DNA of 64,000 nucleotides from Octopus vulgaris. Taxonomy: Eukaryota. The stretch spans positions 75,392,001 through 75,456,000 of the forward strand of contig OX597823.1 of NCBI GenBank assembly GCA_951406725.2, read 5' to 3'. This document shows positions 28,962 to 38,164 of the stretch, one piece after another. The position numbers and the translations under genes are program-made. How positions within the stretch are numbered: position 1 is the stretch's first letter; each line of letters opens with the position of its first letter. The notes beneath the pieces are model-generated. The model was not told the DNA's origin, ran no database searches, and saw nothing but the letters and a program-made list of their open reading frames with translations.

Positions 28962-29489
28962 AGACAGCTGTTGAAGTGTTTGCCCGGATTGATAATCCCT
29001 CACTGTTAGTTCTGTATGTGTGTGTGTGGGTGTATACATATATATATATATATATATACATATATATATAAATAAATATATATTACGAGATGTATTTTCA
29101 TAGCAAGTGACCTGATCTCAGATCGTGTGCTGGAACGAAAACAATTCCAGCGTTGTAGGTGTTTATAAGCCATTTCATTTGTCAAAATATTTTCGTCGCT
29201 TTGAGACCGCGACCTGTTCACTGACAAAAGTCCGTGCTGCAAACATGTCGCGGTCTCAAAGCGACGGAAAATATTTTGACAAATTAAATTTAAATGTTGA
29301 AGTGAATCTAATGGCTTTTGTGTGTTTCTCGAATGGCTTATAAACACCTTCCACGTTGCAATTGTTATATATACATACATATATATTTACATACATATAT
29401 ACATACATACATACATACAGGTATACAAACATACATATAGCTAATACTGAGGGATTATCAATCCAGGCAAAATGCTTCATAAGCTGTCT
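28962..29489. repeat. Nested inverted repeats: outer arms 28962-29009 and 29441-29489, inner Penelope-like element 29083-29366
   Basis: Outer arms share the ggattgataatccctca core. Inner arms are 29140-29175/29332-29366 and 29177-29213/29247-29284. Confidence 0.85.
29178..29228 (-). ncRNA. Minimal type I hammerhead ribozyme, G3-C8 core variant
   Basis: Minus strand reads tttgtca-GTGAACA-g-gtcgc(ggtctcaaa)gcgac-GAAA-ATAT-TT-tgacaaa. Stem I is 7 bp, stem II is 5 bp and stem III is the palindrome AAAATATTTT. Confidence 0.65.
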
Positions 29490-34989: not shown

Positions 34990-35730
34990 TAAACTTGGGT
35001 TCTACTGCTGCTGCGCACGAAAATTTACCGTTCTAGCTCCCATCTGCAGTTTACAGCAGTGCTTGGAAAGAAAGTGTCTAGGGTGTGATCGTCGCATTGT
35101 GCATGAGAAAGAATGTTGTCATGGTGATGCCTACTCAGAGGCCTAAGCAAAGTTGCAGAAAATTATGGAGTTGAGTGTATGAGCCGCACACAAGTAGACG
35201 AGTGGTGCAAACGTTTCCACGATGGCCGCAAAAAAGCCGATAGTGACAAGCGTTCTGGGAGACCAACAACCAGAAGAACTGAGAAAAACATTGCAGATGC
35301 GCGTGAAGCTGTGAAGGGAAATCGTCGAATCACCATCCGTGTGTTATCACAGGATGTGCAGATTACATACGGTTCATTTCAGTCTATTATCACTGAAGAT
35401 TTGGGTATGAGACGCATGTCTGCCAAATTTGTGCCAAAATTACATTCAGTTGCACAAGATCTCCTTCATTGTGTCGAGAAAAATTTTGAAACATTTGCGT
35501 AGGCCTCTGAGCACATGTCGCCAAGACTTTCGCAAAATTTGATATAGATTCTCTGCTCAATTTTCTTTCATGTTCAATGCGACCATCACTAGTTACACAC
35601 GCTCCTTCTAAATGTCGCTGTAAATAGTGGAAGCGTTCTACAACGTTAAAATGCACTGTGCATGCTTTACACTAAGTGTTTTAGCTTCGTTATTATGACA
35701 ACTGTCCGGATAGTTATTCATCACACCACG
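34990..35730 (+). mobile_element. mariner transposase remnant
   Basis: ORF 35179-35502 reads SRTQVDEWCKRFHDGR..DKRSGRPTT..NRRITIR..IITEDLGMRRMSAKFVPKL. A TIR-like ccggatagttattcatcacacc lies at the right end. Confidence 0.9.
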
Positions 35731-38164
35731 AATATGCATTTGTAGTTAACAACAAAAAATGTTTAATATTTTGTGGAATTAGTTGGGGAGCAGGTATATA
35801 GAATTTCTTGTGCTATTTGATTCAGACGCTTCAAGTTAGGAATTCAAATTGTCAACATATCTTTGTTGCTTCTAAACAACCGGATCAACATAATATAAAA
35901 ATCAAGTACTATGTTAAGGTTAATCCGATATACATATTCATAAATTGTGGGATTATATGACTATATCTGAAATCAATTCAAGTACAAGGATCAAATTTGA
36001 TGTTGCCAATAAAATTCAAACTTTGGAGACTTGCATAATTCGATGTGTCCGAAATTGTGTTCTTTTGTAGATAAAATAGATTACCGGTCTGCTTATGCAG
36101 ACGACTTAATGATATTTTTTTATTGAATTAGTGTTAATTATTTTCTCAGTGACATATACAAAAATACTAATATTAAAGTAAATTGTACATGATTACAGAT
36201 TTAGGTGTAAAGAAGAAAACAATTTATATGAGCATGGGTGCGTATTAGAACAATTCAACTTCATTCGAAATCGCCAAGCTACGTAACAATGTTAATACGC
36301 ATTTTGTTGATCAAACGATTTATGTTCGCTAAGTTTATTACGATTGAAACATATGTGCCCTGTCACTTGTTATGAATTCTCAAAGATCAAGAAACCCAAA
36401 ATAAAGCAACCTACTTCAGTTGGATTTTATTGCCCATGTAACCGTTGTCAGGATGGCTAGAATATAAAACTGGGAACTCCTGTTTGTAAACTAATAATTC
36501 TGAGTTTGATGGTAATTTTTTTAGTTACAGCTCTCAGAACACAAAATACCAATTAGTTTGTTATTCAACCACACGCATGTATTGCCAACGGGTACAATAC
36601 AGACCATGTCTCATTAATTTTTTAAATTTTGGCCTATAATCCACACACATTGTACACGAAGAACAGAGTAAGTGAACGTTTATCGTTGAACATTTATCCT
36701 GTATTTATTACTTATTCGGTAAACTGAGTGGGTGATGCGAGGAGTGAGCACCGAGGGATTTTCAAATTGTTGGCGTGTAATAATGTGTACTATGCTTAAT
36801 GATATGATGTTAGATATTCAATCTGCTTCACAAGTTTGTGTCTATACTACAAAATGTAATGAAGAAAAATGTGAAGCAATTTATGCATTGCATAACTGAC
36901 AAGTATTTCCTTAGCTAGTGTTCAACGGAAAATATTTTTCGATCATTTAAAATGAAAGCAAAATTGAATTACCTCATCACTTTAATAAAGGGATTTATAT
37001 AACAAAAGTGATAATTTCAAAGCTTTCTAAGCGGTGGGAATTATAATTTTGTAAAGAGTGGCAAGAGATTTAATCGAACAATCGAATGTGTTTAATTTGA
37101 TTTTGTGTTTATAATTTACCACTTAAATTATTATATATTTTAGCGTGTATTTAAAGAATGTCTGCCGTTTGTAACAAAATTGCTTTGAGCTATCTAAGTA
37201 TCAATTTTATATTTCGAGAGCAATTTGTACTCCATAAAATACGTATAAGTATCATTCAGCTCCAAACACTCATGTAATTACATCAGTAAATATATTAGTA
37301 GGAACAATGCAAACCATATCTTAGCAAACAATTTCATTATATGCAATATGGAAAAGAAAATATTTATAAAATTCGCACTACGCAATTGCATCCAGACGTA
37401 CACATGTATACACATACTTACGTACAGTAAGTATCAATTAATGAATACGCACAAAGAAGTGTATATATAATTATATAGGTATACGTAAGTCTTTACATTC
37501 ATACATACATACATACATATTTAAGTCTTTATGTATTCATACACAACTACATAAGTTGACACACTATTGGGCGCGTCGGGACGTTTGAGTAAGCATCTTA
37601 TGTAATAAATCCCTGTCGTTGGTATACGCATTTCGAATATCGCAGATAATTGTGTTGCCGCTGGAAATTTTAACCTTTTGAAAAAAAATAATGCGAAGAA
37701 AGAAAAGACGAAAAATCAGATACGAAAATCTGTTCACGGAAAATTATGTTTGCAAACGTTTGTTCTAATATAGTCTACTAGATATTTGCAACTTCAAGTT
37801 GTCGCAAAGTTACGTGAAGTCAGAGGTTTCGGGGTCTTGGTAGAGAAAGGGCTTATTTAGCAATATCTAAAACACATTCACACATATGTATCAGTGCGCT
37901 TTCATGTCTATATACGCACAATTTAACATGCACTTTCTTCCAATTTGGTACATAAACAACCACACGCGCTCGCACATTCATATATACATACACACAATAT
38001 ATTTATATAACATATATTTGTATATTTATATACATACACATATTTACATACATATATGCAAATATAAAATATTCATAGACATAAGTATACATATGTGCCC
38101 GTTTATATAGATATGTTTATAAACATATATAATATACAGGCATAAATACACATTTGTGTGTAAA

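Follow-up and report, generated by a model that had tools for sequence, protein, structure and literature searches.

The DNA examined here is a 64,000-nt stretch of the octopus genome (hereafter the window), in which a ~284-nt inverted-repeat insertion (29083-29366) lies between TA-rich repeats. The insertion belongs to a high-copy family and carries on its minus strand the motif of a minimal type I hammerhead, in which core positions 3 and 8 are G and C instead of the canonical C and G. An initial annotation had described a 7-bp stem I, a GTGAACA core, a 5-bp stem II, a GAAA box and a palindromic stem III at 29178..29228. This anatomy was confirmed with respect to the core and the stems, but an extra G (29214) between A9 and stem II, which is a mark of published minimal hammerheads of Penelope-like elements (PLEs), had been overlooked, as had the PLE context and the inverted-repeat insertion. 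The features of the locus are as follows.

29178..29228, minus strand: whole minimal type I hammerhead motif with G3-C8 core (sequence, fold, sole descriptor match in the window)
29222..29228, minus strand: stem I 5′ strand, 7 nt, read 29228-29222 and paired with 29178-29184 (pair probabilities 0.76-0.90, tailed copy folded alone)
29214..29221, minus strand: core strand GTGAACA plus G, with G3 at 29221 followed by U4, G5, A6 and A7, C8 at 29216, A9 at 29215 and the extra G at 29214
29195..29213, minus strand: stem II, 5 bp (29213-29209 with 29199-29195), G10.1-C11.1 closing pair, 9-nt loop (pair probability 0.99)
29185..29194, minus strand: G12, A13, A14, palindromic stem III AATATT and U17 (sequence)
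29178..29184, minus strand: stem I 3′ strand, opening bases of the predicted 3′ cleavage product (sequence, fold)
29083..29240, minus strand: main tailed short PLE copy with 5′ leader, hammerhead, ORF start and 'tail' (alignment with 29 other loci)
29081..29173, minus strand: start of the PLE ORF (31 codons, ATG at 29173-29171), cut short on the tail side (peptide match)
29242..29366, plus strand: inverted 5′-truncated second copy without tail (sequence comparison)
29033..29082, no strand: flanking (TA)n-rich repeat next to the tail, insertion target (repeat content)
29367..29437, no strand: (TA)/(TACA)n flank at the other end (repeat content)

Sequence and fold of the hammerhead motif

Stems I and II are present around a three-way junction, and U4, G5, A6, N7, A9, G12, A13, A14, the A15.1-U16.1 pair and H17 were all found (G12 to A15.1 at 29194-29191, AATATT at 29191-29186, U17 at 29185). 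The C3 and G8 of the canonical CUGANGA core are absent, whereas a Watson-Crick pair between positions 3 and 8 is retained. The motif shares with PLE minimal hammerheads the extra nucleotide after A9, the G10.1-C11.1 pair and a short palindromic stem III that is unstable in the monomer; stem I is open-ended. Cleavage is predicted between 29185 and 29184, after UUU. Folding of the 51-mer gave stems I and II at −13.8 kcal/mol (z −2.5), a value reached by 2 of 200 shuffled sequences. The pairing probability of stem III was 0.0 in the monomer fold of the tailed copy alone, and therefore a dimer or a helper would be expected to assist the window motif.

A relaxed minimal-hammerhead descriptor allowing any Watson-Crick 3-8 pair matched at this motif only when both strands of the window were scanned, and had no match in any of 20 block-shuffled windows. 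The Rfam scan of the window gave no match at the gathering score. At E ≤ 10, the Rfam rows covered (150 of 166) contained only microsatellite- and hairpin-driven matches of the miRNA/snoRNA type and no hammerhead; the canonical minimal motifs of two related loci described below (L158 and L162) were likewise absent from them.

The insertion in the window

The short unit of the main copy is 88-89% identical to ORF-bearing copies of the same family, but ~46 nt that other copies have between the hammerhead and the ATG are missing. Its 31-codon peptide also opens the ORF of the copies L095/L096 and of the public octopus proteins P0001/P0002. Since the second copy starts inside the core, it holds no intact hammerhead. 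Stems I and II form when the main copy is folded alone, whereas in the read-through fold of both arms the second copy pairs with the main copy in a long hairpin (−69 kcal/mol for 131 nt) and the probability of stems I and II drops to 0.0. TA-rich flanks were also found at many other copies of the element. The window copy is probably a short, internally deleted, dead insertion without a function of its own.

Elsewhere in the window, a segment at 35812-35871 has weak similarity to the middle of the element (71-83%, E 0.2-0.6) and is possibly a very old copy or a chance match. An open reading frame at 35128-35502 (plus strand) is reminiscent of a fragment of a Tc1/mariner transposase.

The host element, a Penelope-like retrotransposon

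In a search of the 2.8-Gb genome, 3,334 candidates were obtained, and 40 of them were scored. The aligned copies of this family, here called family A, define a unit of ~210-230 nt. Its 5′ end is fixed, its 3′ end occurs at two alternative positions, and in many cases a second copy, inverted and 5′-truncated, is attached to it. Relative to the ATG, the 3′ ends in the loci L001-L060, some of which overlap or have common flanks, were located at +29-38 nt in 46 of 99 arms, at +87-94 nt in 48 and elsewhere in 5, which resembles the two RT start sites plus tail of an anole element (PMC11167929). In short copies, the motif lies ~23 nt behind the fixed 5′ end (~22 nt when counted to G3); in the family, the motif is located ~60 nt ahead of the ATG of an RT/GIY-YIG ORF.

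A pattern-based guess at the continuation of the ORF beyond 31 codons gave no match; the continuation was found via the two public octopus proteins, and ORF-bearing copies were then found in the genome. One of these (L096) has the arrangement pLTR-ORF-pLTR, as described for Penelope-like elements (PMC8557442, PMC11167929), with the motif in both pseudo-LTRs (pLTRs), at 1342 and 5603, flanking the ORF. In another (L097), a 1,025-aa frame ends in a GIY-YIG domain (PF01541, residues 915-1005, 25.4 bits against a Pfam cut-off of 22.6), and its translation has a C-x3-C-x2-C motif between RT and EN. The Pfam search gave no RT match in the ORF of family A; PLE-type blocks and a YVDD motif, which we take to be the RT motif, were recognized by eye in the translation of an ORF-bearing copy. 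Direct pLTRs, inverted 5′-truncated copies, an optional tail and AT-rich targets, the traits of EN+ PLEs, were all observed. Solo copies and ORF-bearing copies carry the hammerhead motif without an inverted arm.

Paired motifs 1-6 kb apart (L061-L064) were considered as full elements and rejected; they are duplications or separate insertions. A group of loci (L033, L040-L042, L051 and L058-L062) represents one short PLE insertion inside a larger repeated unit, which has common flanks of at least 700 nt and ~107-nt tandem repeats, is spread over the chromosome and sometimes occurs as large inverted pairs. The public gene model P0001 joins the PLE N-terminus to a methyltransferase domain (PF06325/PF13649) and is probably a prediction artefact or an exonised insertion.

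The G3-C8 pair in young and old subfamilies

With the flanks fixed and eight core positions left free, 1,443 matches to family A were obtained. Among the 100 matches listed, which come from one subfamily on one chromosome and are not all independent (some are copies of one larger duplicated unit), G3 is present in 98, C8 in 96, the two together in 94 and C3 in none; the exact core 8-mer of 29214..29221 is present in 83. The expectation that GTGAACA is the consensus of the genomic copies was thus borne out, and because G3 and C8 are the family state, with no C3, the motif was filed as a hammerhead variant. Eight young copies with an ORF (97-98% identical over the endonuclease) were examined; all eight share the exact core, although their loop II is different. 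Among the ORF fragments, at least 60 have endonuclease identities of 96-100%. The motif was present in 6 of 12 older ORF-bearing copies (G3 in 6/6, C8 in 5/6); of the others, one was cut off and five were without a pLTR in the stretch. An identical core was recovered in the consensus of loose contig ends from the sequencing runs of four organisms; 20 runs from 8 studies were listed as carrying the sequence, none of them recorded as RNA, and these contigs bear on sequence and not on expression or RNA ends. A run comparison that showed no core differences even at places where the reference copy departs from the family was left out of the core counts.

A loose G3-C8 pattern gave 1,699 matches against 2,541 for the reversed control, and its count therefore carries no meaning; it served only as the lead to family E. 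Of the ten loci drawn from it, four (L187-L190) are E-like, five (L191-L193, L195 and L196) not clearly so, and L194 gave no match. Family E is an older relative of family A, with ~45-70% identity over the first 20-35 N-terminal codons. Its core has C or U at N7, stem II comprises 6 bp and stem III is shorter. When the core was left free, G3 was found in 22 of 23 copies and C8 in 20; the G3-C8 combination occurred in 20 of the 23 and C3-G8 in none. Families A and E differ in N7, loop II, the lengths of stems II and III and the outer pairs of stem I, whereas positions 3-6, 8, 9 and 12-15 are unchanged. G3-C8 is therefore the state of both young and old subfamilies and not a mutation of the window copy. 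Loop II varies among family E copies, but this was not taken as a sign of selection, given that old copies decay and that the stems were fixed by the pattern. A search with the endonuclease returned only family A among 150 scored rows and no new families.

Sister families and covariation of positions 3 and 8

Further PLE families have a hammerhead at the homologous place. Family B is 35% identical to family A over 144 N-terminal residues and 51% over the shared frame, and is the youngest sister family. All 25 motifs examined have C3-G8, their stems I, II and III show compensated changes, and all 25 also have an A9C substitution. Family B (L101:1451-5377; L102:1329-1380) comprises many near-identical copies with intact frames of 1,311-1,312 codons and an insert rich in Asn; the stem III loop of its hammerhead is not palindromic, and its protein had no match in Pfam. 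Family C is 33% identical to A and 49% to B, and has U3-A8 in 91 of 100 among the matches listed from 2,578, TGA having been fixed by the pattern. In 7 of these 100, a C3-A8 mismatch (C3 with non-G at 8) was found; such rows are possibly an amplified intermediate between families C and D. The copies of family C (L128-L157) have a stem I of 3 bp only.

Group D combines a C3-G8 core with the stem II of family C in 7 matches, the 3-8 pair having been fixed by the pattern; both D and E were first found with such patterns, and of the two, E was rechecked with the pair free. Within group D (L121, L160-L166), L121, L160 and L164 have common flanking differences and look like an old subfamily; L162 and L165 may belong to family C and have acquired two private changes. 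A metagenome scan gave two loci from 66 pattern matches, and the hammerhead was reached only in L158. The PLE encoded on this contig has 41% identity to family A; behind its ORF lies a minimal hammerhead with a canonical C3-G8 core and A17 (L158:1675-1725).

Families A-E all have G as the additional nucleotide behind A9, and position 17 is mostly U in families A, C, D and E. The UUU triplet at the predicted cut had been called unusual, which does not hold, since U17 is frequent in a published PLE minimal-hammerhead alignment, where one oyster row also has UUU (PMC4209133).

In an alignment of 13 rows of homologous PLE families, the 3-8 pair is GC in 6, CG in 5 and UA in 2 rows and unpaired in none, and for the 3-8 pair and stem II together 78 of 78 cells pair; the rows are chosen, well-preserved real copies from about six lineages, with stems I and III out of register and uncounted. 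The covariation score was 0.615 compared to 0.196 after shuffling (0/500) and at most 0.177 after sliding, scores that overstate the number of events, as the rows stand for about six lineages with at least two double changes. Across families, three of the five stem II pairs change on both sides, while the invariant columns include U4, G5, A6, G10.1, G12, A13, A14 and A15.1. The alignment is informative mainly through two double changes, each of which restored the pair, and through U4-G5-A6 and G12-A15.1, which stayed the same as loops and stems diverged.

The 3-8 pair is needed for the active conformation of the hammerhead. Its covariation through three Watson-Crick forms points to selection on the active-site fold. 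The inference of the initial annotation, that the double compensatory change argues for selection on catalysis, is not established, since covariation bears on the pair and fold only, the copies derive from uncut RNA (see below) and A9C is found in the youngest sister family.

5′ junctions and the predicted cut site

Copying of cut RNA would give insertions that start at U1.1. Among 100 listed of 3,423 matches, obtained with a pattern that left out rows with G 14 nt upstream, 96 keep at least 10 nt of the upstream element, one has an internal deletion, two begin 2-4 nt upstream and one starts at the predicted cut. This lone copy is an inversion junction, explained by the self-complementarity of stem I. 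With one such start in 100 listed, the genomic copies give no sign that cut RNA was inserted.

At the fixed 5′ end (for example L096 1320-1325), 39 of 100 listed rows run on into the element's own upstream sequence. The other 61 junctions are non-templated and have G in 38, C in 14, A in 6 and T in 3 cases where the element has C. The excess of G at these novel junctions is significant (p = 8e-10 against 25% G), although some of these Gs sit at inversion junctions, where the other arm could template them. An extra 5′ G is a signature attributed to cap copying in L1/SVA (PMC3287187), and the junction excess, being of this kind, suggests that the insertion templates of family A were most likely capped and uncut. 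A reading of the fixed 5′ end as a 3′ splice site (pyrimidine run plus AG, with a branch-point-like word upstream) was ranked below a capped start site, since no more than one G is added and the flanks are unrelated.

Interpretation of the motif

The motif has the form of a minimal type I hammerhead with G3-C8 for C3-G8 and sits in the pLTR, within the 5′ leader, of a PLE family; we consider it probable that it acts as a slow ribozyme which would cut only as a dimer or with the element's protein. Transcription would start at the fixed 5′ end of the element and give a capped RNA, whose leader would fold stems I and II, with stem III forming only between two motifs or with protein. A slow cut after U17 would take the cap and the 5′ leader off a fraction of the RNA. 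Cut RNA may leave the transposition pool, or cutting may process tandem read-through transcripts, while uncut RNA would be the insertion template and would be copied from one of the two internal start sites. Long-term selection would keep a Watson-Crick 3-8 pair as the active-site fold needs it, leaving the identity of the pair free.

Several observations stand against this explanation. Copies that begin at the predicted cut are practically lacking (1 of 100 listed), 7 of 100 listed family C rows have the C3-A8 mismatch, A9C is found in family B, a lineage with intact 1,312-codon frames, although A9 is normally conserved, and the extra base of families A-E is G, whereas the published consensus has H (>80%; PMC4209133). 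Moreover, G8C alone slows cleavage 10^5-fold (PMC8495972), and since a change from CG to GC must pass through a mismatched state, the lineage could live for a time without cutting.

A less likely reading, which nevertheless deserves some weight, is that the fold is kept for a non-catalytic task of the leader (translation, dimerization of the RNA or binding of the protein that the element encodes) and that the G3-C8 form cuts at no relevant rate. The derivation of the copies from uncut RNA and the fixation of A9C in family B fit it, as do two published observations: catalytic mutants of the anole element had no effect on insertion in vitro and no RNA-seq read ended at the cut site (PMC11167929), and PLE minimal hammerheads cut poorly even as dimers (PMC4209133). 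However, the invariant columns are the catalytic ones, the 3-8 pair is Watson-Crick in three forms, and a structural role alone would not obviously require G12 or a non-G at position 17.

It is improbable that the ribozyme was already dead in the ancestor of families A and E and that G3 and C8 arose by two neutral changes, pair by coincidence and were then passed on. One origin of G3-C8 would be enough for both families, the second of two given changes restores the pair one time in three, and mismatched cores do occur among the copies; yet the core positions stayed the same between A and E despite their divergence, changes in the stems are compensated, and a double change to U3-A8 occurred independently in another lineage. 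The idea that a foldback (MITE-like) inverted repeat produced the motif by chance, with no relation to a ribozyme, has a negligible probability: transcription of both arms would hide the motif in the hairpin of the window insertion and Rfam reported no hammerhead, but inversion is the usual PLE arrangement, the canonical motifs of L158 and L162 are missing from the same Rfam rows, and this origin is refuted by pLTR-ORF-pLTR copies and other copies with the motif without inversion together with the canonical cores at homologous positions of sister families.

Returning to the slow hammerhead, a more far-reaching version of it is speculative and was given somewhat less credence than the non-catalytic leader. 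The leader hammerhead might act as a slow switch between capped uncut RNA as insertion template and cut RNA that is translated or discarded, with the families tuning the rate via C-G, U-A and G-C pairs; this would be the first natural use of the reversed pair, missed by CUGANGA/UUGANAA descriptors. A role of cut leaders in translation, which is speculative for this element, has a precedent in RNA viruses (PMC13725137).

Natural G3-C8 is best described as a real, old and stable variant of a known ribozyme motif, and it gives good evolutionary support for the 3-8 tertiary pair, for which support has hitherto come mainly from the crystal structure and engineered rescue. Families A (G3-C8), B (C3-G8 with A9C), C (U3-A8) and D (C3-G8 with the stem II of C) form a natural series on the question whether PLE hammerheads need to cut, and the cap-like G at 5′ junctions offers genomic evidence for insertion from uncut RNA. 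As standard CUGANGA searches miss this family with thousands of copies, calls of 'no hammerhead' for other PLEs may be too early. The hammerhead survey of Lunse et al. 2017 reportedly comprised ~150,000 sequences.

Comparison with known systems

In its protein and insertion features, the element resembles Neptune/Nematis-type EN+ PLEs, with a C-terminal GIY-YIG, the C-x3-C-x2-C linker (compare the Zn-finger-like CX2-5CxxC linker described by Craig et al. 2021, PMC8557442), (TA)n targets and inverted 5′-truncated copies, and it may belong to this clade. The tail of ~58 nt is longer than the usual 30-40 bp (PMC8557442).

The hammerhead itself is like those described in the pLTRs of metazoan PLEs (Cervera and de la Pena 2014, PMC4209133) in its type I topology, the extra nucleotide between A9 and 10.1, the G10.1-C11.1 pair, the short palindromic stem III, the frequent U17, the location in pLTRs and the thousands of dispersed truncated copies. 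In contrast to the G3-C8 observed here, those hammerheads have C3-G8, with U3-A8 in Schistosoma and a hemichordate row; in supplement file 2 of that study, nine GUGA strings occur, none of them at core position 3.

In the literature searched, as far as its available parts go, G3-C8 was found as an engineered form only (PMC3884650, PMC11167929, PMC8495972) and not as a natural one; Lunse et al. 2017, Przybilski and Hammann 2007, Arkhipova et al. 2017 and file 1 of PMC4209133 were outside the scope of this search. The available parts of bioRxiv 2026.07.22.740005 and PMC6765202 contain no mention of G3-C8. The description of the pair in the initial annotation as an engineered rescue agrees with the published C3G/G8C constructs (PMC11167929, PMC8495972). 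As in natural core variants (Perreault et al. 2011, PMC3088659), positions 3 and 8 covary with preservation of the pair, but in the available part of that work only U3-A8 is named as natural, whereas G3-C8 takes two transversions.

An experimental counterpart exists in the anole Poseidon element PAc (Frangieh et al. 2024, PMC11167929). Its hammerhead requires protein for cutting and is partially rescued by C3G/G8C, and uncut RNA was reported as the template of this element in vitro. The ORF of PAc starts in stem II, whereas in the octopus element ~60 nt separate the cut site from the ORF start. In PAc, G3-C8 was engineered as a control; it is the natural state in the octopus family, where it completes three of the four Watson-Crick states of the 3-8 pair within one group of sister retroelements.
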